This document shows, piece after piece, positions 1 through 8,987 of a DNA stretch of 8,987 bases. The stretch covers positions 1 to 8,987 of the IMG/VR virus record IMGVR_UViG_2617270951_000015; one strand, 5' to 3'. Within the stretch, counting starts at the first letter, position 1. The number at the start of each line of letters is the position of its first letter. The position numbers and the translations under genes were made by a program. The notes under the pieces were generated by a model, which was not told where the DNA came from, made no database searches, and saw only the letters and a program-made list of their open reading frames with translations. Source of the stretch: a virus (Duplodnaviria > Heunggongvirae > Uroviricota > Caudoviricetes).

Positions 1-933
1 ATGGACAACGACAAAATTGATCAACACAGCGACGAAATTGAAGTTGAGAGCGAAGAAAAAGAGCGCGGCAAAAAAATAGAAATAGATGAAGACCGACTCC
101 CCTCCCGGGCGATGGCAATTCATGAGCATATCCGCCAGGATGGTGAAAAAGAGCTGGAACGCGACGCAATGGCGCTACTGTGGTCAGCCATTGCGGCGGG
201 TCTGTCGATGGGCGCTTCGTTACTGGCAAAAGGGATATTTCAAGTCGAACTGGAAGGTGTGCCGGGCAGCTTCTTGCTGGAGAATCTCGGTTATACCTTT
301 GGTTTTATTATCGTCATTATGGCCCGCCAGCAATTATTTACCGAAAATACCGTGACTGCGGTACTACCCGTCATGCAAAAACCGACAATGAGCAACGTCG
401 GCTTACTTATACGGTTATGGGGCGTCGTGCTGCTGGGTAATATTCTCGGGACAGGTATTGCGGCGTGGGCATTTGAATATATGCCTATCTTCAATGAAGA
501 AACTCGCGATGCATTTGTCAAAATCGGCATGGATGTGATGAAGAACACCCCCAGCGAGATGTTTGCCAACGCGATCATTTCCGGCTGGCTGATCGCCACT
601 ATGGTTTGGATGTTTCCTGCAGCGGGTGCGGCAAAGATTGTGGTGATTATATTGATGACCTGGCTTATTGCCCTGGGTGACACCACCCATATCGTGGTCG
701 GTTCTGTTGAAATCCTCTATCTGGTGTTTAACGGTACGCTGCACTGGAGCGATTTCATCTGGCCCTTCGCACTACCTACTTTAGCGGGGAACATCTGCGG
801 CGGCACCTTTATCTTCGCGTTAATGAGTCATGCACAGATTCGTAACGACATGAGCAATAAGCGTAAAGCAGAAGCACGCCAAAAAGCAGAACGTGCGGAA
901 AACATTAAGAAAAATTATAAAAACCCGGCATAA
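1..933 (+). CDS. yfdC: Inner-membrane formate/nitrite transporter (FNT) family protein YfdC, complete
   Basis: 310-aa ORF from ATG at 1 to stop at 931-933; strongly hydrophobic multi-helix core with charged N- and C-termini; recognised from memory as E. coli YfdC, the chromosomal gene that flanks argW. Confidence 0.85.
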   Translation: MDNDKIDQHSDEIEVESEEKERGKKIEIDEDRLPSRAMAIHEHIRQDGEKELERDAMALLWSAIAAGLSMGASLLAKGIFQVELEGVPGSFLLENLGYTFGFIIVIMARQQLFTENTVTAVLPVMQKPTMSNVGLLIRLWGVVLLGNILGTGIAAWAFEYMPIFNEETRDAFVKIGMDVMKNTPSEMFANAIISGWLIATMVWMFPAAGAAKIVVIILMTWLIALGDTTHIVVGSVEILYLVFNGTLHWSDFIWPFALPTLAGNICGGTFIFALMSHAQIRNDMSNKRKAEARQKAERAENIKKNYKNPA

Positions 934-1008
934 ATGGCGAGGGTTTAAGCAATCGAGCGGCAGCGTACTTACCCCGCACTCCATTAGCGGGTATACTCAT
1001 GCCGCATT

Positions 1009-1083
1009 GTCCTCTTAGTTAAATGGATATAACGAGCCCCTCCTAAGGGCTAATTGCAGGTTCGATTCCTGCAGGGGACACCA
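1009..1083 (+). tRNA. argW: tRNA-Arg (anticodon CCU)
   Basis: 75-nt cloverleaf read directly: acceptor GTCCTCT/AGGGGAC (one G-U), D-stem GTTA/TAAC, anticodon stem AGCCC/GGGCT with loop CTCCTAA (anticodon CCT), T-arm GCAGG-TTCGATT-CCTGC, discriminator A plus encoded CCA. Confidence 0.9.
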
Positions 1084-1100
1084 TTTATCAGTTCGCCCCC
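1040..1100 (+). other. Probable prophage left attachment junction (attL) at the 3' end of argW; coordinates approximate
   Basis: Inference only: an integrase gene starts about 160 bp downstream of the tRNA 3' end, the usual layout for tRNA-targeting integrases. The matching attR copy is not inside the window, so the core cannot be delimited. Confidence 0.3.
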
Positions 1101-1178
1101 ATCCGTACCAGTCCGCAAAATCCCCTGAATATCAAGCCTTCCGTAGATTCACAGTTCGTCATGGTTCGCGTCAGATCG

Positions 1179-1208
1179 TTGACAGCCGCACTCCATGACG
1201 GGTAAAAA
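1179..1208 (+). promoter_or_regulatory. Candidate sigma70 promoter for the integrase gene
   Basis: Perfect -35 TTGACA (1179-1184), 18-bp spacer, -10-like TAAAAA (1203-1208), about 37 bp upstream of the intS ATG. By-eye prediction. Confidence 0.35.
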
Positions 1209-1244
1209 GTGGATAAAATAATTTTACCCACCGGATTTTTACCC

Positions 1245-2402
1245 ATGCTCACCGTTAAGCAGATTGAAGCAGCAAAGCCGAAAGAAAAACCATACCGCCT
1301 ACTCGATGGTAATGGCCTGTACCTTTATGTCCCTGTGTCAGGGAAAAAGGTATGGCAGCTTCGCTACAAGATTGACGGTAAGGAGAAAATCCTGACCGTA
1401 GGAAAATATCCGCTAATGACTTTGCAGGAGGCAAGGGATAAGGCATGGACTGCGAGGAAAGACATCTCGGTTGGCATCGATCCGGTAAAGGCGAAAAAGG
1501 CTTCGTCTAACAACAATTCCTTTAGTGCGATTTACAAGGAATGGTACGAGCACAAGAAGCAAGTATGGTCAGTAGGGTATGCGACTGAACTTGCAAAAAT
1601 GTTTGATGACGACATTTTACCTATCATCGGCGGCCTTGAAATTCAGGATATTGAGCCGATGCAACTGCTGGAAGTAATCCGCAGATTTGAAGATCGCGGT
1701 GCAATGGAGAGAGCAAATAAAGCCCGCAGAAGATGCGGCGAGGTTTTCCGTTACGCTATTGTTACTGGTAGGGCTAAATATAACCCGGCACCTGACCTTG
1801 CTGACGCCATGAAGGGATACCGCAAGAAAAACTTCCCGTTTCTTCCTGCAGACCAGATCCCGGCATTTAACAAAGCACTGGCAACATTTTCAGGAAGCAT
1901 CGTATCGCTCATTGCGACCAAAGTTTTACGCTACACAGCCCTCAGAACAAAAGAGCTTCGTTCCATGCTATGGAAGAACGTCGATTTTGAAAACAGGATT
2001 ATCACCATCGACGCCAATGTGATGAAGGGACGCAAAATTCATGTGGTTCCTATGTCAGACCAGGTAGTTGAACTTCTCACTATGCTAAGCTCAATCACCA
2101 AACCAGTATCAGAGTTTGTTTTTGCCGGGCGCAACGATAAGAAGAAGCCAATTTGCGAGAACGCTGTACTGCTTGTGATCAAACAAATCGGCTATGAAGG
2201 TCTGGAAAGCGGTCACGGATTCAGGCATGAATTCAGCACGATTATGAACGAGCACGAATGGCCTGCCGACGCCATTGAAGTGCAACTTGCACATGCCAAC
2301 GGCGGATCTGTGCGCGGGATTTACAACCATGCACAGTATCTCGATAAGCGCAGAGAAATGATGCAGTGGTGGGCGGACTGGCTTGATGAAAAGGTAGAGT
2401 GA
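1245..2402 (+). CDS. intS: Prophage tyrosine recombinase (P4-like integrase, IntS-type), apparently intact
   Basis: 385 codons from ATG 1245 (MLTVKQIEAAK...); N-terminal arm-binding region, C-terminal catalytic region containing the HxxR (HGFRHEF) and terminal tyrosine (GIYNHAQYLD) motifs; lies directly beside the tRNA. The ORF-track start at 1209 is a GTG 12 codons upstream; the ATG at 1245 matches the recalled IntS length. Confidence 0.9.
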   Translation: MLTVKQIEAAKPKEKPYRLLDGNGLYLYVPVSGKKVWQLRYKIDGKEKILTVGKYPLMTLQEARDKAWTARKDISVGIDPVKAKKASSNNNSFSAIYKEWYEHKKQVWSVGYATELAKMFDDDILPIIGGLEIQDIEPMQLLEVIRRFEDRGAMERANKARRRCGEVFRYAIVTGRAKYNPAPDLADAMKGYRKKNFPFLPADQIPAFNKALATFSGSIVSLIATKVLRYTALRTKELRSMLWKNVDFENRIITIDANVMKGRKIHVVPMSDQVVELLTMLSSITKPVSEFVFAGRNDKKKPICENAVLLVIKQIGYEGLESGHGFRHEFSTIMNEHEWPADAIEVQLAHANGGSVRGIYNHAQYLDKRREMMQWWADWLDEKVE

Positions 2403-2423
2403 GCGACCTTAAACTATCGAATA

Positions 2424-2458
2424 GCACAAAGCCTAGCAATCCAGTACAAAGCTTTGTG
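2424..2458. repeat. Inverted repeat CACAAAGC/GCTTTGTG enclosing a perfect 12-bp palindrome ACAAAGCTTTGT (2446-2457)
   Basis: Read directly, 22-56 bp downstream of the intS stop and followed by a T-rich stretch (tctcagttttgtc). Could be an intS terminator or a protein-binding operator; function not determinable. Confidence 0.3.
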
Positions 2459-2615
2459 TGTCTCAGTTTTGTCTAAGTGTTCTACTAAAACATAGTAAAA
2501 TCGGTAACGGCTGGAAATCATTCAATACTCGCACTATCGGAAGTTCACCAGCCAGCCGCGGTACGTTCTTACATACGATGTACCGCTGTTCTCTTTACGA
2601 TTTATAGCTGTACTG

Positions 2616-2948
2616 GTGAATTATGAGCAATCTGAATCCATGCATGACGTGTGGTGCCTGTTGTGCATTTTCCGCGTCTCTTTTTACTGGGCAGAAGCTG
2701 ACGATGCTGGCGGAAAGGTTTCGGTCAGTCTCACTGAGCAAATATCTCCTTTTCATCGCTGTATGCGCGGCACCAATCAGAAAAATCCCCGATGTGGCGC
2801 TCTTGCCGGCCCCCCCCGGAGAAAACGCATATTGCTCTGTTTACAAAAACCGTCCACATGCAGGGAATTCGCAATGTCCGGCGAAAATAGCATCGTAAAT
2901 GAAGCATGTAATCGCGCACGGGAAAAATATGGATTTCCAAAAATCTGA
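2616..2948 (+). pseudogene. Cysteine-cluster protein gene (YkgJ/UPF0153-like CxxCxxCC family by motif), disrupted by three frameshifts
   Basis: Protein-like segments alternate between the frames of ORFs 2623..2898 and 2616..2948: [16 protein letters not shown] | [49 protein letters not shown] | [12 protein letters not shown] | [32 protein letters not shown]. Joined they give a ~109-aa protein with CxxCGxCC and CxVYxxRPxxCRxF motifs. Frame switches sit at a T4 run (2668-2671), a C8 run (2810-2817) and an A5/ccgtcc stretch (2845-2856). Weak SD GGTGA before ATG 2623. Confidence 0.5.
2810..2817 (+). repeat. Homopolymeric C8 tract inside the Cys-cluster gene
   Basis: cccccccc at 2810-2817; the reading frame changes exactly across this tract. 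Confidence 0.9.
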
Positions 2949-3060
2949 ATATTCTCCGCCGTGCAAAAATGCGAACAACATCACTTCACTAATCAACCTG
3001 ACATGGCATACTTAGCACGCTAACTATGATAACAAACTAATACCCTAAAACTCATGGTTC

Positions 3061-3087
3061 CGGGACTGGTCGTGGTCCCGTTTTTTT
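3061..3087. terminator. Intrinsic terminator between the convergent Cys-cluster gene and the tfa-like gene (strong on plus, possibly bidirectional)
   Basis: Stem CGGGAC(UG)/(UG)GUCCCG (3061-3080) followed by T7 (3081-3087) on the plus strand; on the minus strand it is preceded by A7 and lies directly after the stop of the downstream gene (3090). Confidence 0.6.
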
Positions 3088-3089
3088 AT

Positions 3090-3698
3090 TCAGCCAGCAG
3101 GCCATCCAACAACGTAACTGCGGATCGCCTTCAGCTCTGTCAGCGCCTCAACCTCTGCTTTCATCTGCAACTGCCGTGTATTAATCTCCACCCCCTTCGC
3201 AAACATCGCCTGCTCTGTCGCATCCGACAGGGCTATGATGTCTGCCGCCGTCACCGGCACCACATTATTATCCCCGTCGGTCCAAGCAAAACCTTCCGGA
3301 AGACGGTTATTCTCTGCCATCAGGCGTGTCATGCTTATCCTGGACAACGTCTTCTTGCCGTAATCCCAGTTCCTTCCGTTGAATTCCATCATGTATTCCA
3401 TATTCTCCTGCACATCACGCCAGATATTAATCTCTTCCCTTTTCGCCGCTTTTGCCGCTTCCAGTACTGCTTCCGTGGCGACAAAGGCACTCACACTTCC
3501 GTACGTTCCTGCTGTCAGCCCAGACCACAATGCTTTTCCGTGTTCTGTATTATCCGTTTCCGTTGCAGTATACGGCAGCCATACCTGTTCCCCTTTTTCA
3601 TTCACCGCGTCTTCAAACTGCACCTCACAGTTTATCCCGCCATATTCGTTGCTGGCTGCATTTCGTACTGCAAGAATCTCTTTTCCCTTATCCACCAT
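3090..3698 (-). CDS. Putative tail fibre assembly/chaperone-like protein (family uncertain), 202 aa
   Basis: ORF placed immediately downstream of the tail fibre gene. Start chosen at ATG 3698 (MVDKGKEIL...) because a strong SD GAGGAGG sits 2 nt upstream and overlaps the stf stop (TAG 3707-3709). The ORF-track start at 3785 would overlap stf by 79 nt. Function is inferred from position only. Confidence 0.6.
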   Translation of the reverse strand: MVDKGKEILAVRNAASNEYGGINCEVQFEDAVNEKGEQVWLPYTATETDNTEHGKALWSGLTAGTYGSVSAFVATEAVLEAAKAAKREEINIWRDVQENMEYMMEFNGRNWDYGKKTLSRISMTRLMAENNRLPEGFAWTDGDNNVVPVTAADIIALSDATEQAMFAKGVEINTRQLQMKAEVEALTELKAIRSYVVGWPAG

Positions 3699-3706
3699 GA
3701 CCTCCT

Positions 3707-5035
3707 CTATGATATGCGCTGAAATAATCCTGCCTGTCTGATACCCGGAGATGATGTCCATAGCATCGGACCACATGCACGCCACGTGCCCGGTAAACGG
3801 GTCTCCCCCACATTACCGGAAGCAACCAGGGGAGTACCATCCGAAAGGCAACATGCAGACAGTGATGAGCCGGCAATGGCTGAGCCCGGTGCCATATCCC
3901 CCGAATAACTCGTCGCATAATATGCCGCAAGGACAAAAGAACCGACACCAAACAGTCCGCTGTCAGGACTTCCTGACGGTCCCTGAGGTCCTGCCGGACC
4001 TGCGGCTCCCGTATCTCCTTTTGGCCCCTGAGGCCCTGCCTGACCTGCGGCTCCCGTATCCCCTTTTGGCCCCTGTGGTCCTGCCGGGCCTGCAGCTCCC
4101 GTATCTCCCTTTGGCCCCTGAGGTCCTGCCGGACCTGCGGCTCCCGTATCTCCTTTTGGCCCCTGAGGTCCTGCCGGGCCTGCAGCTCCCGTATCTCCCT
4201 TTGGCCCCTGAGGTCCTGCCGGACCTGCGGCTCCCGTATCTCCTTTTGGCCCCTGAGGTCCTGCCGGGCCTGCAGCTCCCGTATCTCCCTTTGGCCCCTG
4301 AGGTCCTGCCGGACCTGCGGCTCCCGTATCTCCTTTTGGCCCCTGAGGCCCTGCCTGACCTGCGGCTCCCGTATCCCCTTTTGGCCCCTGAGGCCCTGCC
4401 GGGCCTGCGGCTCCCGTATCCCCTTTTGGCCCCTGAAGCCCTGCCGGGCCTGTATCCCCCTTGTCGCCCTTCGGTCCCTGTGGTCCGCCCGGATCGCCCT
4501 GCTCACCTTTCGGACCTGTATCCCCCTTATCGCCCTTGTCACCTTTATCCCCTTTCGGCCCCGGTGGCCCTGCCGGGCCTGTATCGCCCTTGTCCCCCTT
4601 CTGTCCCTGTGGACCAGTTGCTCCGGTGTCGCCTTTCAGTCCCTGTGGCCCCACGGCAGTTTCGGCTTTCTCAGCAGCTTCTCGCGCCCTGCGCACAGCC
4701 TCATCCGCCGCCGCTTCCAGCTTCTTCAGTGCATCAGGATAATACGCTGCATCCGTTTCACGGAGCAGAAAGGCATTCAGGGTGCCCGGTTCGTCGTCGG
4801 CCATGACATCAATCTCGCCGGCGCATGCCGGCTGACGACCTTCCACGCACAAGGTCACACGATAACGCCCCGGCTCAACCTGCATGCTGTAACTGCCCGT
4901 TTCGCCTGGCTGGTGCTCTGCCACCGTGGTGACTATCACCGTCTCACTCGTTCGCGTGGCTTTCAGCTCTATGGTGCAGTCCGGTACCGGTTTTCCTGTA
5001 CCATCCTTCAGCACACCTGAAATCTGTACTGACAT
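3707..5035 (-). CDS. stf: Side tail fibre protein with a long collagen-like (Gly-X-Y) stalk, 442 aa, apparently intact
   Basis: N-terminal ~90 aa ([17 protein letters not shown]...CTIELKA...) resemble the recalled N-terminus of lambda Stf; residues ~128-345 are uninterrupted Gly-X-Y triplets, including about ten [15 protein letters not shown] units; distinct ~95-aa non-collagen C-terminal domain. Purine-rich SD GGGGGGAA before the ATG. Confidence 0.85.
3982..4476. repeat. Tandem 45-bp repeat array (about 11 units) with a 90-bp higher-order unit repeated three times at 4072-4341
   Basis: Read directly: units begin at 3982, 4027, 4072, 4117, 4162, 4207, 4252, 4297, 4342, 4387 and 4432. Two unit variants (cctgccggacctgcggctcccgtatctccttttggcc and cctgccgggcctgcagctcccgtatctccctttggcc) alternate. 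Encodes the collagen-like stalk of stf on the minus strand. Confidence 0.9.
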
Positions 5036-5808
5036 ATTCCCCCCACAAAAAAGCCCACCAGAACCGGCGGGCTGTCATAACTCTGTGTTACCTGGCTATG
5101 GTAGTTCACCGTCATCTGCTGACCACCAAACTGCTCCGCATCCACCTGCATCCCCACAATGGCCGTGTTCGGGTAGCACTGTTTCACATCGATGATTTCG
5201 GTGTATGACGACCACAGCGTTCTGTTCTGCAGCTGGTCCGTGGTGCTGTCCGCCGTCTCCCTGACCATCCGGATGTTAAAGGGGCGGGGAGGCAGATTAT
5301 CCAGAATCACCGAGGCCAGGAACTGTGAGGTGGTCTTGCCGTTAATGGTGACATCCTTTTCTGTCACCCAGTTACCGTTACGCTGTAACTGAATCAGCAG
5401 ACGGACAGAGGACGGATTACGGTCACCCTTTGACGTGGTCTCCACCAGTGACTGCACCCCGAAGGTCACCCGCAGGCGGTCAATGTTCGCTGACGTAATG
5501 GTGCGTGTTACCGGTTTTGCCCTGGTCACTTCGACACCCAGTACAGTTTCAGAGCCGGAGGACTCAAAGCCTTCCGGTGGTGTCTGCTCCTGCTCCCCGG
5601 CACGCCAGACCGCGGTCACACCGTGTATCACGGGATTACCGTCCGTGTCCGTCAGCGGGGTTTTGTTCACCAGAATACTCTGCAGGCTTTTCACCGGGCC
5701 TTCTATCGGTCCCTCACCAATCGCATCAATCACGCTCATCATCTGCGTGGATTTGAGATTGTCTTTCGCCTCACGAGGCGTGTGTGCCTTACCGCCACCT
5801 TTTCCCAT
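5008..5808 (-). pseudogene. J: N-terminal fragment of a lambda J-like central tail fibre / host specificity protein
   Basis: First ~235 aa (MGKGGGKAHTPREAKDNLKSTQ...NIRM...QLQNRTLWSSYTEIIDVKQCYPNTA...NYH) follow the recalled N-terminus of lambda gpJ (~1130 aa). After NYH (about 5095-5100) the ORF runs out of frame through the stf upstream region and stops at 5008. SD GGGGAAGG before the ATG at 5808. Confidence 0.8.
5047..5072 (-). terminator. Terminator-like hairpin plus U6 immediately upstream of the stf start
   Basis: Minus strand: GCCCGCC-ggttct-GGTGGGC (7-bp stem, one G-U) followed by TTTTTT, then GTGGGGGGAAT-ATG(stf). Plus-strand coordinates: stem 5053-5072, A-run 5047-5052. Confidence 0.45.
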
Positions 5809-5921
5809 ACAGCCTTCCCCTGAATAAATTAACCGCCACTTGCCATTCCGTACAGAAGTCGGATATCCTTCGCCCGAAAAGCATGAAACACATTTCTGCC
5901 ATGCTAAAGAGAAACCCCGGT

Positions 5922-5957
5922 ATCAGCAGATACCGGGGTTTTCTTTCATGCCCACCG
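5922..5957. terminator. Strong GC-rich hairpin with T-rich flanks on both strands (candidate bidirectional terminator) in the I-J insert
   Basis: Perfect 12-13 bp stem AAACCCCGGTATC / GATACCGGGGTTT (5922-5934 / 5939-5951) with loop AGCA; followed by TTTTCTTTC on the plus strand and TTTCTCTTT on the minus strand. Confidence 0.45.
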
Positions 5958-6013
5958 ATAATCCTGTTGGTTAAAACCGGTAATGGCATAAAAATTCTGA
6001 ATATCTTCACATT

Positions 6014-6041
6014 TTCACAAACTGACCGTGGCGCGTATAAT
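6014..6041 (+). promoter_or_regulatory. Candidate sigma70 promoter inside the I-J intergenic insert
   Basis: -35 TTCACA (6014-6019), 16-bp spacer, perfect -10 TATAAT (6036-6041); no ORF follows on the plus strand. Confidence 0.45.
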
Positions 6042-6047
6042 TTCTCT

Positions 6048-6144
6048 GCGTTAATTTTTTTGTCGTGATATAAGAATAATTCCTTACACTTAATCTTCGT
6101 AACTCTCCCGCAGTTCCTGTCCGCGATCACTGCGGGATTTTTTT
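6048..6144 (+). ncRNA. Candidate small non-coding RNA (~95 nt) defined by the promoter at 6014-6041 and the terminator at 6106-6144
   Basis: Predicted TSS about 6048 and 3' end at the T7 tract. No ATG-initiated ORF in the interval (only a GTG followed by an immediate stop). Convergent with, and ending beside, the 3' end of the I-like gene. Purely a sequence-based prediction. Confidence 0.3.
6106..6144 (+). terminator. Intrinsic terminator (plus strand)
   Basis: 9-bp stem TCCCGCAGT / ACTGCGGGA (6106-6114 / 6129-6137) with a 14-nt loop, followed by T7 (6138-6144). Confidence 0.55.
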
Positions 6145-6151
6145 ATTCTTT

Positions 6152-6817
6152 TTACCCCTGCCGCCCGATAACCACGACCTTTCCGCCCCCGCCTTCATCA
6201 CGGGTGCTGATGTCCTGGGATATACGGCGGGAGCCAACCAGCATTTCCCCGTAAGGCACCGGCATCGGGTTCCCCTGGGCAATCATGTTATCCAGCGAGG
6301 AAAAGTACGTGTTCTGTCTGCCGTTATCCGTTGCGCGGTAATCCGGTGTTTTTGCCTTCGGGGCCAGCATCTGGGCCACACCGCCCAGTATCATGCTGGC
6401 ACCCAGTGAAAACAGCATCGTGGTGGCAGAAAAACCACCGGCACTCAGGGCTGTACCCCATAACGCCATCGAGCCTCCGGCCGTGAAGAAAGAGCCCACG
6501 ATGGCTGCCGCCCCCAACACAATCTGCAGTCCACCCTTTCCGGCCCCGGCCAGTCGCGGCACAATGTGGATGACCGTTCCCTCACCCAGCTGTTCGTGAA
6601 GGCGGGCGTACACCACCTCCGGTGCCGTGTCTTCACCGGCAATACGTATCTGGTACCAGCCTTCGTTCATCTGAAGGCGAAAGCCCGGCATCTGCATCGA
6701 CAGGGCGCGAATGGCTTCCGCTGCCGTGTTCACATACAGGCTGAGGCGGCGGCCAAATCGTTGTAAATCCCCGTGGTTGCCCACGGTTGAGCCAGAGATA
6801 ACAGCTTCCACCATCAT
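6152..6817 (-). pseudogene. I: Lambda gpI-like tail assembly protein, N-terminally truncated
   Basis: From GDLQRFGRR onward (minus-strand codons at about 6772 down to the stop at 6152) the protein follows recalled lambda gpI (…IRIAGEDT…IHIVPRLAGAGKGG…FSLGASMILGGVAQMLAPKAKTP…NTYFSSLDNM…PVPYGEM…VVVIGR). The first ~15 codons of the ORF (MMVEAVISGSTVGNH) are out-of-frame FII sequence; the gpI N-terminus is missing. Confidence 0.8.
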
Positions 6818-7103
6818 CCGGCGAAACCCGGTCTATCCAGAAGTTTTCCTCACCGATGGTCAGCGTGTCTCCACGCCGCAGTTGCCGCACATCATCAGTC
6901 CGGACAAACAGGGACGGGCTGGAGCCTTCAACGCGCACGCCCTGTCCGGCATAGCTGATATTTTCAGGGTCATCAAAAACACCACGTATTACTGCGCCGG
7001 ACTGCTCACCGGATGTCATGGTGGCTGACGTTCCCATGTACCCGCGTATCGTTTCATCGGCGCGGGCAATGGCAGCATCGAACAGGTTATCGAAATCAGC
7101 CAC
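6633..7103 (-). pseudogene. FII: Lambda gpFII-like head-tail joining protein, C-terminally replaced by out-of-frame I sequence
   Basis: Residues 1-~108 (MADFDNLFDAAIARADETIRGYMGTSAT...DRVSPDDGGSCYLWL-RG) follow recalled lambda gpFII (117 aa); the remaining ~48 residues read the I gene out of frame. GTG start at 7103 preceded by SD GGGAGG. Confidence 0.75.
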
Positions 7104-7114
7104 AGCGCCTCCCG

Positions 7115-7510
7115 TTATTGCATTCTGGCCAGGCCGCGCTCTGTCATTTCAGCTGCCACACCGGCAGAGACACGGAACGCCGTTCCCGGCAGCACAAATG
7201 CCACAGTGTCATCCCGCGTGGCGTGAAGTGCATCAGTATGCAGCGTCACCAGTGCCACGACCGTGACCAGAGCAGCCGTATCAATCACGGTATCCGGCTG
7301 CGCTGATACCACCTCATTTTCATGTCCGGTCAGCGCATTTTCCGGGCTGACAGATGTGTCCTGACCGGCAGCGTCATCCGTGTCATCAAGCTCCTCTTCC
7401 AGCTCTGCCACACGGAGCACCAGTTCTTCTTTCGTCCCCGTCAGGCTGACATCACGGTTCAGTTGCTCACCCAGCACCTGAAGACGGGCAATCAGTTCAT
7501 CTTTCGTCAT
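7115..7510 (-). CDS. FI: Lambda gpFI-like DNA-packaging/head assembly protein, apparently intact (132 aa)
   Basis: MTKDELIARLQVLGEQLNRDVSLTGTKEEL...AFRVSAGVAAEMTERGLARMQ closely follows recalled lambda gpFI. Start set at ATG 7510 (SD GGAGGAG 3 nt upstream) rather than the longer ORF start at 7549. Confidence 0.8.
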   Translation of the reverse strand: MTKDELIARLQVLGEQLNRDVSLTGTKEELVLRVAELEEELDDTDDAAGQDTSVSPENALTGHENEVVSAQPDTVIDTAALVTVVALVTLHTDALHATRDDTVAFVLPGTAFRVSAGVAAEMTERGLARMQ

Positions 7511-7531
7511 GGACTCCTCCACAGAGAGAAA

Positions 7532-7549
7532 ATGGCCCCGAAGGGCCAT
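7532..7549 (-). other. Perfect 7-bp hairpin with a UUCG tetraloop between the E stub and FI
   Basis: ATGGCCC-ttcg-GGGCCAT on the minus strand, followed by TTTTCTCTCTG and then the FI SD. Could be an attenuator or stabilising structure; function not established. Confidence 0.35.
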
Positions 7550-7551
7550 GA

Positions 7552-7830
7552 TTACGCCAGTTGTACGGACACGAACGCATCAGGATCAGCCAGCAGCATC
7601 AGCGGTGCTGACTGAATCATGGTGAACTCACGCGCCGGATCGCCGGTGGTCACCCAGTTTTTCGGGTAGCGGGCAGAGGCGTTAATACCTTCGCGCTGTG
7701 CGTCCGCATCCTGAATGCAGCCATAACGGAAGCCCTTCACCGTAGGCCATGCCGTTGGACTGTCCGGCAAGCACAACCACGTAGAACCAGTCCGGCTCAG
7801 ATGAAGGGCCGACCTGTGGATCTCCTTCAA
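7552..7830 (-). pseudogene. E: C-terminal fragment (about 58 aa) of a lambda gpE-like major capsid protein
   Basis: YGCIQDADAQREGINASARYPKNWVTTGDPAREFTMIQSAPLMLLADPDAFVSVQLA is the recalled C-terminus of lambda gpE (341 aa). Homology runs from about 7725 down to the stop at 7552; the upstream part of the ORF is out-of-frame nanS-like sequence. Confidence 0.8.
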
Positions 7831-7975
7831 TAGCCACCGCCTGCATCAGTGTGTACGGCGTAATGGCAACCGGTCCGCCATATGGCTGCCAGCCCTCTTT
7901 CAGTTTGTGTGTCAGCTTTTCCGCAAGGTCTGACGGCGACGCCGCCCTGACAACATCATAGTGTTTAAATGCCAT
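7682..7975 (-). pseudogene. nanS-p: N-terminal fragment (about 84 aa) of a prophage NanS-p-like sialate O-acetylesterase (DUF1737 region plus start of the SGNH/SASA domain)
   Basis: MAFKHYDVVRAASPSDLAEKLTHKLKEGWQPYGGPV...DWFYVVVLAGQSNGMAYGEGLPL carries the GQSN esterase motif and a recalled NanS-p type N-terminus. Homology stops at about 7726, where the E stub begins in another frame. SD GGAGG before the ATG at 7975. Confidence 0.65.
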
Positions 7976-8168
7976 GAATCCTCCCGGCCGGGATAATATT
8001 GTGAGTAAAATGAGGAGCGGGCTGAAGTCCGGAAGTTACAGGACAATGGCAGAAGAGAGACAACAGCCCGCAATACGAAAAAGGCCGCACTATTGCGCAG
8101 AGTGATTACTGTCGGATATTATTCGCCAGCTGAAATATTACTTCACGTTTTGTTGTTTATTCCTTGCC

Positions 8169-8196
8169 GCCCGCGTCTCCCTGCGCGGGCTTTTTT
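8169..8196 (+). terminator. Intrinsic terminator (plus strand) in the tRNA-nanS spacer
   Basis: Stem GCCCGCG / CGCGGGC (8169-8175 / 8184-8190) with an 8-nt loop, followed by T6 (8191-8196). A second perfect 8-bp hairpin AGCCCCTC-cgga-GAGGGGCT sits at 8208-8227. Confidence 0.55.
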
Positions 8197-8423
8197 GTCC
8201 ATAAGAAAGCCCCTCCGGAGAGGGGCTGGAGAGTGGCGCTATGTGCCATTGCATGGTGCCGGGTGCCTCCCGGTGAATTCAGTACCAGCACCTGAATCCG
8301 CGATTATCCCATATACCTACTCGCTGATTGCCCCTCCGCACAGGGGGATTCACCATGCCAGTTTCTTTTAACAAACTCCCCGCAAAACAGACAACTGTCA
8401 ACCGTCTGAATTGTGAGACATTT

Positions 8424-8449
8424 AAAAAAAAGGCCCGCAAAAGCGAGCC
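8424..8449 (-). terminator. Intrinsic terminator ending the minus-strand tRNA operon
   Basis: Minus strand: GGCTCGC-tttt-GCGGGCC (one mismatch in 7 bp) followed by T8 (plus-strand A-run 8424-8431), 15 nt after the 3' end of the last tRNA. Confidence 0.5.
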
Positions 8450-8463
8450 AGGGAAAATAAGTG

Positions 8464-8540
8464 TGGCGCGTTGTACTGGATTCGAACCAGTGACCGATTG
8501 CTTAGAAGGCAATTGCTCTGTCCGGCTGAGCTAACAACGC
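8464..8540 (-). tRNA. tRNA-Arg (anticodon UCU)
   Basis: 77-nt cloverleaf on the minus strand: GCGTTGT-TA-GCTC-AGCCGGACA-GAGC-A-ATTGC-CTTCTAA-GCAAT-CGGTC-ACTGG-TTCGAAT-CCAGT-ACAACGC-G-CCA; all stems perfect. Corresponds to one of argN/argO of Stx-type phages (which name is uncertain). Confidence 0.85.
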
Positions 8541-8553
8541 AGGATACAGATAA

Positions 8554-8630
8554 TGAACCGCCTTCGGGGACCCGAACTCCGCGCAACCAGCTTCGAAGGC
8601 TGGCGCTCTTTCCTGATGAGCTAATGGCGG
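8554..8630 (-). tRNA. tRNA-Arg-like (anticodon UCG), atypical and possibly degenerate
   Basis: CCGCCAT-TA-GCTC-ATCAGGAAA-GAGC-G-CCAGC-CTTCGAA-GCTGG-TTGCG-CGGAG-TTCGGGT-CCCCG-AAGGCGG-T-TCA. D and anticodon arms are perfect, but the acceptor stem has one A-A mismatch, the T-stem has one A-C mismatch, the T-loop has G where the near-invariant A58 is expected, and the 3' end reads TCA rather than CCA. Confidence 0.5.
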
Positions 8631-8637
8631 TATGTGA

Positions 8638-8713
8638 TGGTGGCCCTTGCTGGATTTGAACCAGCGACCTGGCGATTATGAGTCGCTCGCTCTCACCACT
8701 GAGCTAAAGGGCC
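8638..8713 (-). tRNA. ileZ: tRNA-Ile2/Met (anticodon CAU), ileX/ileZ-like
   Basis: 76 nt: GGCCCTT-TA-GCTC-AGTGGTGA-GAGC-G-AGCGA-CTCATAA-TCGCC-AGGTC-GCTGG-TTCAAAT-CCAGC-AAGGGCC-A-CCA. Close to the recalled E. coli ileX sequence, so probably the lysidine-modified AUA reader; the isotype cannot be proven from sequence alone. Confidence 0.8.
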
Positions 8714-8722
8714 GGGAGCAGA

Positions 8723-8751
8723 ATAATAATGGTGCGTAATTAATTCTGCAA
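8723..8751 (-). promoter_or_regulatory. Candidate sigma70 promoter for the tRNA operon
   Basis: Minus strand: -35 TTGCAG (8751-8746), 17-bp spacer, -10 TATTAT (8728-8723), about 9 nt before the 5' end of the first tRNA; lies directly after the methyltransferase stop (8763). Confidence 0.4.
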
Positions 8752-8762
8752 TCTCATCCGTT

Positions 8763-8987
8763 TCAAACGATTAAATCCTGAACTTCCCTGACTGTCTGCT
8801 CAAAACGTCCGGTCTCCAGTTCAACGCCAATCGCACGACGCCCGAGCGCCAGTGCCGCTTTTACCGTTGAACCTGAGCCCATAAAAAAATCTGCAACCAG
8901 GTCACCCGGACGACTGCTCGCGCTGATTATCTGCTGCAGCATTTCTGCCGGTTTTTCGCACGGATGTTTCCCGGGATAGAACTGCAC
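8763..8987 (-). CDS. DNA methyltransferase (beta-class N6A/N4C amino-MTase), C-terminal 74 aa only; gene continues beyond the right window edge
   Basis: Open to the window end. Motif IV-like HPCEKP precedes motif I-like FFMGSGST, the motif order of beta-class amino-methyltransferases. Whether the full gene is intact cannot be judged. Confidence 0.7.
   Translation of the reverse strand: MQFYPGKHPCEKPAEMLQQIISASSRPGDLVADFFMGSGSTVKAALALGRRAIGVELETGRFEQTVREVQDLIV

Follow-up and report, generated by a model that had tools for sequence, protein, structure and literature searches.

Pathogenicity-associated small RNA B (PasB) is a small RNA (sRNA) of prophage PP6 in enteropathogenic Escherichia coli (EPEC) O127:H6 E2348/69, where it was annotated as an 83-nt RNA on the minus strand of NC_011601.1, at positions 1466343-1466261, and detected with the northern probe AATCCCGCAGTGATCGCGGAGCT (Pearl Mizrahi et al., 2021, PMC8550237, Table S6). 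It gave a northern band of ~83 nt and its stability depended on Hfq, with log2 fold changes of -6.8 and -2.4 in delta-hfq compared with wild type (Table S2), and its level was higher in static lysogeny broth (LB) than in virulence-activating medium (PMC8550237). In sequencing of interacting RNAs after their ligation (RIL-seq), PasB had 37 partners, of which 30 were coding sequences (CDS) or 5′ untranslated regions (5′UTRs), these figures being summary counts; it was the second RNA in 99-100% of its chimeras, and its longest U-tract was 7 (PMC8550237, Table S5). More recently, the seed of PasB was placed just upstream of its terminator (Zhu, Shabalina & Storz, 2026, bioRxiv 10.64898/2026.05.13.724894). 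Here we describe a promoter-to-terminator unit at positions 6014-6144, on the plus strand, of an 8,987-nt stretch of Caudoviricetes DNA (IMG/VR record IMGVR_UViG_2617270951_000015, positions 1 to 8,987; hereafter the window). We consider it likely, with a probability of roughly 0.8, that this unit is a free-standing sRNA gene of the pasB family, carried in an AT-rich cassette that has the stop codon of tail gene I on one side and the start of tail gene J on the other, and lying antisense to the late operon. Judged by its sequence, the copy in the window is a divergent allele, apparently uncatalogued, of a prophage sRNA family that is already known and has experimental support, and not a new kind of gene.

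Several other prophage sRNAs bear on this locus. EcOnc22, from Sp15 of enterohaemorrhagic E. coli (EHEC) O157:H7 Sakai, was crosslinked to Hfq, gave a northern band of ~85 nt and was destabilised in delta-hfq, and EcOnc23 (Sp14) and EcOnc24 (Sp11) were listed as its homologues, with Hfq peaks in crosslinking and analysis of cDNA (CRAC) (Tree et al., 2014, PMC4104026, Table S2). The PasB row of Table S6 carries no note of an EHEC homologue, unlike the rows for PasA and PasD (PMC8550237). A 66-nt prophage sRNA, HnrS (EcOnc10-12), represses hha (Poudyal et al., 2026, PMC13502914), and STnc100 has been related to PasD (Zhu, Shabalina & Storz, 2026). The published census of PasB used blastn with a word size of 28, the 83-nt query and a coverage above 75%, and reported "a few nucleotide differences" among variants (Zhu, Shabalina & Storz, 2026).

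Evidence for the identity of the unit came from its alignment with pasB of E2348/69, which extended over window positions 5988-6150 and in which the -35 and -10 hexamers and the spacing between them were identical. The reverse complement of the PasB northern probe matched window positions 6120-6139 at 20 of its 23 positions, and the 83-nt PasB agreed with the window without a mismatch over 25 nt at most, in a run covering the 3′ half of the terminator and the T7 tract. The surroundings agreed as well: pasB lies between a tail assembly gene (end 1466255) and gpJ (start 1466496), antisense to both, and its 3′ end is 6 nt from the stop codon of I in E2348/69, compared with 7 nt in the window. Segment by segment, the two loci compared as follows:

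5509-5808, 5′ end of the J gene (300 nt): 94% identity to E2348/69
5809-5987, left part of the spacer: unrelated to E2348/69 (35%)
5988-6013, upstream block (-61 to -36): 96% identity to E2348/69
6014-6047, promoter region: 88% identity to E2348/69
6048-6105, transcribed body: 66% identity to E2348/69
6106-6144, terminator and T7: 85% identity to E2348/69, the sole difference being a 5-nt indel in the loop
6152-6496, 3′ end of the I gene (345 nt): 96% identity to E2348/69

An earlier note, made from the sequence of the window, had described the unit as an orphan. This description did not survive the comparison, as the unit shares homology and synteny with pasB, and synteny with EcOnc22 and EcOnc24. 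The same note had proposed a search of Rfam and of known prophage sRNAs; a cmscan of the whole window (Rfam 15, E<=1) returned no family overlapping 5809-6151, and it was the PasB homologue that turned up among the known prophage sRNAs. A sequence-string search of the literature gave no match to the unit.

All position numbers used here are those of the window, and the statistics on its promoters and terminators are based on 2000 dinucleotide-preserving shuffles of the whole window. The parts of the unit and its upstream edge are:

5988-6013, plus strand: conserved block upstream of the -35 hexamer, forming the left edge of the cassette and containing a second TTCACA (6006-6011) and a CRP-like TcTGA-N6-TCACA (5996-6011)
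6014-6041, plus strand: sigma-70 promoter, with -35 TTCACA at 6014-6019, a 16-bp spacer and -10 TATAAT at 6036-6041
6048-6144, plus strand: predicted primary transcript of 97 nt (minimum free energy -19.4 kcal/mol, z -2.1)
6055-6078, plus strand: weak 5′ A-U hairpin, in which the U-run 6055-6061 pairs with an A-rich stretch at about 6071-6078
6061-6144, plus strand: equivalent of the 83-nt EPEC form of PasB, placed by mapping the Table S6 coordinates (PMC8550237) through the alignment (73% identity)
6080-6098, plus strand: candidate seed, a pyrimidine-rich core (UUCCUUACACUUAAUCUUC) that is single-stranded, being left unpaired by both the consensus and the minimum-free-energy folds
6106-6144, plus strand: intrinsic terminator, with stem 6106-6114/6129-6137, loop 6115-6128 and T7 at 6138-6144

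The promoter claimed in the earlier note (TTCACA, 16 bp, TATAAT) was confirmed as an 11/12 match to the sigma-70 consensus, the single match of that quality on either strand of the window and its best-scoring site. A promoter of at least 11/12 arose somewhere in 125 of the 2000 shuffles, and its combination with a strict terminator 20-250 nt downstream was absent from all 2000, which argues that the unit is not a chance match. The 9-bp GC stem with T7 that the note had placed about 65 bp downstream was also there, beginning 64 nt past the -10 hexamer: nine contiguous pairs run from U6106-A6137 to U6114-A6129, with the core CCCGCAG/CTGCGGG, followed by a bulge and two further pairs. Transcription would begin at G6048, placed 7 nt past the -10 hexamer. 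The absence of an open reading frame (ORF) between promoter and terminator likewise held, as 6048-6144 contains no ATG and its GTG- or TTG-initiated frames are all 2 codons long. The two identities suggested in the note, a non-coding RNA gene of ~95 nt or a moron-like unit, are both supported through the homology to pasB and the anatomy of the cassette. As to length, ~95 nt agrees with the 97 nt predicted from the promoter, and not with the 83-nt form of EPEC PasB, whose equivalent is 6061-6144; the 5′ end of that equivalent sits directly after the conserved U-run.

A consensus fold of 15 alleles (RNAalifold) was tripartite, consisting of the weak A-U 5′ hairpin, the unpaired core and the terminator. 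The 5′ hairpin had nine pairs in the consensus, one of which changed from U-A to G-C in five alleles, lending it weak support. Within the core, AUCUU (6093-6097) was invariant across all alleles seen. Upstream, TTCACA is duplicated 8 bp apart, once ahead of and once at the -35 hexamer (6006-6019), and this duplication is conserved in most alleles. The CRP-like word at 5996-6011 is conserved in most alleles as well, and it is centred at -44.5, which is not among the canonical positions; it occurred once in the window against 0.21 expected and was present in 35 of 200 shuffles, which is not significant on its own. Activation of the unit by CRP, which might be read together with the higher level of PasB in LB than in virulence-activating medium, is offered as a lead only.

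The published EcOnc coordinates refer to an older genome record, and their shift of about +128 nt was checked with EcOnc10 (HnrS) only, for which a 66-nt terminator unit is possible at one place only, 131-148 nt rightward of the peak as published. EcOnc22 and EcOnc24 map to the spacers between I and J in Sp15 and Sp11 (NC_002695.2), on the strand opposite to the late genes, and applying the shift of +128 puts their peaks over the RNA body, from the U-run as far as the 5′ half of the terminator. From the comparison of Sp15 and Sp11, with EcOnc23 outside it, EcOnc22 and EcOnc24 probably belong to the PasB family.

The borders of the cassette were apparent from searches with the 343-bp I-J spacer of the window, since most phage matches began at query positions 177-180 (window 5985-5988) and covered only ~5985-6147. 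The cassette has 36% GC, compared with 56-61% in J and I. In lambda, the I-J gap is 60 bp and holds no cassette, only a hairpin in the sense direction. The cassette is thus a moron with an RNA cargo, that is, an autonomous unit of deviant GC content between genes that are near-adjacent in lambda.

To describe the diversity of the family, we drew on two samples of IMG/VR. The scan with the promoter word recovered at least 119 stretches, and the matches listed held at least 39 distinct promoter-to-terminator units, with a B-type head as in the window at 56 loci, the canonical A-type at 49, a longer head at 11, and mosaics. Among the 39 variants listed, the stem CCCGCAG/CTGCGGG was invariant and all length variation fell in the loop; the -10 hexamer was TATAAT, AATAAT or GATAAT across the alleles listed. 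The second sample comprised 80 loci found through the I protein (96-99% identical). Wherever an I-J spacer could be delimited among them, the terminator was present (67/67) and the unit again lay between I and J in antisense orientation, its 3′ end being separated from the stop codon of I by a few nucleotides; spacer lengths were 234-343 bp or 848-851 bp. Pairwise identities, calculated over 70 of these loci, averaged 98.0% in the upstream block, 94.8% in the promoter, 84.2% in the body (minimum 61.5%), 92.4% in the terminator and 97.6% at the 3′ end of the I gene. At one IMG/VR locus (L034, minus strand), the cassette is interrupted 6 bp past the -35 hexamer by an IS3-family element, making it a natural promoter knock-out; the end of the element resembles IS629.

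The longer spacer class, of ~850 bp, was found at five IMG/VR loci (L179, at 2088-2800 on the minus strand, L183, L190, L193 and L198) and in two phages encoding Stx2a (LC567829.1 and LC567840.1). These spacers carry sodC, encoding a Cu/Zn superoxide dismutase (Sod_Cu, E=2e-32), on the sRNA strand and with a hairpin terminator of its own. A B-type RNA body with its terminator follows 55 nt past the sodC terminator, and homology to the free-standing cassette begins between about -5 and +1. No promoter-like site was found ahead of the RNA body in these seven sodC-linked loci, so that the RNA could arise there only through read-through of the sodC transcript and processing. The earlier note had named, as a finding that would speak against an independent gene, that in intact relatives the region might turn out to be the 3′UTR of an adjoining gene; the sodC-linked minority comes close to this description, which fits neither the copy in the window nor most relatives.

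Members of the cassette family were present in 1836 of 5426 complete E. coli genomes. With an 84-nt query, megablast located the window allele in 800 of the 5426, including CFT073, S88 and ATCC 25922. A megablast search with the 83-nt PasB as query and a word size of 28 located canonical PasB in 956 genomes, with every match at 90% identity or more, and missed the window allele. No annotated feature was found under the matches in the complete E. coli genomes (RefSeq), CFT073, S88 and ATCC 25922 included. Because the longest exact run shared with PasB is 25 nt and the published census required a word of 28, the census very probably did not count the window allele. The census criterion is operational and not biological, and missing it makes the allele probably uncatalogued, not foreign to the family. 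A scan of GTDB representatives gave matches only in E. albertii and in one "Streptomyces" contig, and says little about the breadth of the family. On that contig (NZ_JBHTEB010000006.1, "Streptomyces flavalbus", 3.4 kb), positions 1229-2903 are 95% identical to window 5094-6775; it is almost certainly an assembly contamination.

By analogy with its characterised relatives, the RNA of the window would most likely function as an Hfq-dependent base-pairing sRNA. In a lysogen, host sigma-70 RNA polymerase would start at about G6048 and stop at the hairpin and U7 ending at 6144, giving an RNA of ~97 nt, and trimming behind the conserved U-run might then yield a form of ~84 nt (6061-6144), as the 83-nt PasB suggests. 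Hfq, which binds the E2348/69 allele, would be expected to bind the terminator hairpin and U7 tail here too, given that both are conserved. It would present the core UUCCUUACACUUAAUCUUC (6080-6098) to chromosomal and accessory mRNAs, with which short and imperfect duplexes would form, mostly within coding regions and 5′UTRs, and this pairing would alter the translation or stability of the target mRNAs. The target set of the window allele probably overlaps that of the E2348/69 allele without being identical to it.

Several observations count against assigning the unit to a trans-acting sRNA family in this way. The experiments on expression, Hfq and targets all concern alleles that are 66-73% identical to the window in the body, and that body is the least conserved segment of the cassette, which is unusual for the place where a seed resides. 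The annotated 5′ end of PasB lies 13 nt downstream of the promoter-predicted +1 in window numbering (18 nt in E2348/69), so that the predicted architecture of the transcript is tentative. The RIL-seq study found no common target motif for PasB, and PasB has no entries among its sRNA target-site matches (PMC8550237, supplementary file 9), which is why the seed is only predicted. Lastly, the RNAalifold consensus of 15 alleles showed essentially no covariation; as the terminator stem is invariant, none is possible there, and the hairpin is supported only by length changes that are confined to the loop.

The variability of the body is also what makes a role in cis worth weighing. The RNA is perfectly complementary to the intercistronic I-J part of the late mRNA, and the geometry is fixed, always antisense between I and J and ending 6-7 nt from the stop codon of I; a cis-antisense role is therefore possible, and would be one explanation of a body that is hypervariable and mosaic between conserved flanks (84% mean pairwise identity, minimum 61.5%, compared with 95-98%). 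The RNA, or its convergent transcription, might then dampen or process the late tail transcripts (J, lom and the tail fibre), either of the carrier prophage or of an incoming phage with the same allele, in which case the diversification of alleles would set specificity. Cis-antisense RNAs are familiar from lambdoid phages, with OOP of lambda and sar of P22 as examples. We nevertheless regard a cis role as unlikely, well below the trans-acting reading, because EPEC PasB on Hfq was ligated to 37 RNAs, 30 of them CDS or 5′UTR, which is the signature of a trans-acting RNA, and because the unit is still intact in the window although the prophage around it is dead (capsid stub and losses from terminase, head and tail). 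Some of the same evidence bears on the idea that the unit is a leftover devoid of function, derived from an earlier moron such as sodC, whose 3′ end came to lie behind a promoter-like sequence and is carried along with the tail genes. The sodC-linked loci, where the same RNA body follows the sodC terminator without a promoter, speak for such a history, but the promoter hexamers and their spacing are conserved among alleles whose bodies are one third different, relatives yield abundant Hfq-dependent RNAs in two pathotypes, and the unit has been kept intact in a multiply deleted prophage, all of which makes a leftover highly improbable. That the locus encodes a very small protein we judge to be scarcely credible: the only candidates are long mechanical ORFs that cross the spacer, and these traverse its left part, which is unrelated among relatives, so that they cannot be conserved, and within 6048-6144 there is neither an ATG nor a GTG/TTG frame of more than 2 codons.

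Beyond the assignment to the pasB family, we tentatively raise a broader and rather doubtful idea, in which the locus would be a modular sRNA cassette whose promoter and terminator stay constant and whose body is swapped, with at least three types, mosaics and the sodC fusion as its products. The diversification would then be adaptive, providing either a repertoire of host targets for each lineage or an allele-specific antisense lock on the I-J transcript of competing phages. If this were true, roughly half of the family would have escaped the published PasB census.

The unit is set in a prophage that has lost much of its original content. The features around it are:

5008-5808, minus strand: J stub, N-terminus (FNIII-A_GpJ), in which homology to intact J stops near 5094
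5914-5945, both strands: strong hairpin flanked on both sides by an A-run and a U-run, resembling a terminator in either direction and not part of the sRNA
6152-6733, minus strand: tail assembly gene I, complete (Pfam Lambda_tail_I, E=4e-10), 193 aa as annotated in relatives
8197-8387, minus strand: full-length STnc100 RNA (RF02076; 139 bits, E=2e-31), a second prophage sRNA gene in the window
8464-8713, minus strand: phage tRNA genes Met-CAT, Arg-TCG and Arg-TCT, adjoining STnc100

The I-J spacer thus occupies 5809-6151 (343 bp), between two minus-strand lambdoid tail genes. The earlier note had spoken of I and J stubs, which was right for J, of which the first ~238 codons remain up to a deletion junction near 5094, and not for I, which is complete. 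Its statement that the unit is transcribed convergently toward the 3′ end of I proved correct, the stop codon of I (6152-6154, minus strand) lying 7 nt past the T-run. Homology to intact prophages spans 5094-6775. Compared with an intact relative, the prophage has lost lom together with the rest of J (~2.76 kb), and the N-terminus of J is joined to the region upstream of the tail fibre. On the other side, the 3′ end of K is joined to a truncated FII and K is cut (seen at ~5094, ~6775 and 6633-7975). To the right of 6775 come the truncated FII, an intact FI, a capsid-E stub, a DUF1737 gene, the STnc100 RNA and the three phage tRNAs; terminase, most head genes and several tail genes have been deleted. 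The window is therefore a multiply deleted prophage adjoining argW and an integrase gene, in which the promoter-terminator unit and I are intact. No complete E. coli genome contained the window in a single piece, and even the best matches covered at most 42% of it.

The 12-bp, GC-rich hairpin at 5914-5945 (-28.4 and -28.7 kcal/mol, z -6.1 and -5.4, on the two strands) lies between the cassette and J and is the positional equivalent of the I-J hairpins of lambda and E2348/69, which are oriented as terminators in the I-to-J direction. Between the 240-bp and 234-bp spacer classes, this I-J hairpin shows a compensatory change from C-G to T-A. Elsewhere in the window, four identical terminator-like matches (TGCGGCTCCCGTA with a T-rich tail) occur on the plus strand at 4001-4328, with spacings of 135, 90 and 90 bp; they fall where the tail-fibre gene (3707-5035, minus strand) has its collagen repeats, and represent a coding repeat and not real terminators.

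The locus does not reveal a new kind of system, and its interest lies in an under-counted family, the link to EcOnc22-24, the sodC variant and the diversification of the body. The comparison supplies a name and an experimental precedent for an unannotated gene in about one third of complete E. coli genomes, reference extraintestinal strains among them, and it links three objects that had been named separately, namely PasB, EcOnc22-24 and the RNA body downstream of sodC. It also indicates that homology searches with large words miss roughly half of the PasB family, and it provides natural allelic variants that could be used to work out the seed and targets of PasB.

Among known systems, PasB itself is the closest. 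The two RNAs share the antisense position in the I-J spacer, the promoter hexamers and their spacing, the terminator stem, the U7 tail and a tripartite layout of a U-run with an A-rich head, an unpaired pyrimidine-rich core and a terminator. They differ in the body, which is 66% identical (73% over the equivalent of the mature form), in the loop, which is 5 nt longer in the window, and in the I-J spacer, which is 343 bp in the window versus 240 bp and unrelated in its left part. The spacers of EcOnc22 and EcOnc24 also align with the window cassette and have in common with it the AAUCUUC core, the CCCGCAG/CTGCGGG stem and T7, but they represent a third allele, with the head GAUGCCUGAAAAAUAACUCCAUAAC and a weaker -35 hexamer. 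HnrS, an Hfq-associated sRNA present in multiple copies, resembles the window RNA in belonging to lambdoid prophages and in having a U7 terminator and AAUCUUC, but it lies in the lysis region next to Rz and not in the I-J spacer, and has no alignable homology to the window RNA. We rejected the identity of the two, as EcOnc10 maps to the lysis region of Sp12, and we likewise rejected hha as a shared target: the HnrS seed is CUUCUACC, and the corresponding CUUCGUAAC of the window RNA makes only ~4 bp with the hha site. Prediction of full-length duplexes with hha gave unrealistically long duplexes that were no better than shuffles (p ~0.05-0.25). The STnc100/PasD family (RF02076) is also a prophage-borne sRNA with a copy in the window, but it is unrelated in sequence, lies in the late-regulatory region by the phage tRNAs and has an Rfam model, whereas 6014-6144 matches none. 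Lambdoid phages carry protein-coding morons, of which lom and bor of lambda are examples. With these and with sodC the cassette shares the organisation as a promoter-to-terminator unit between late genes, richer in AT than the flanking sequence and probably active in the lysogen, and it differs from them in that its cargo is a non-coding RNA.

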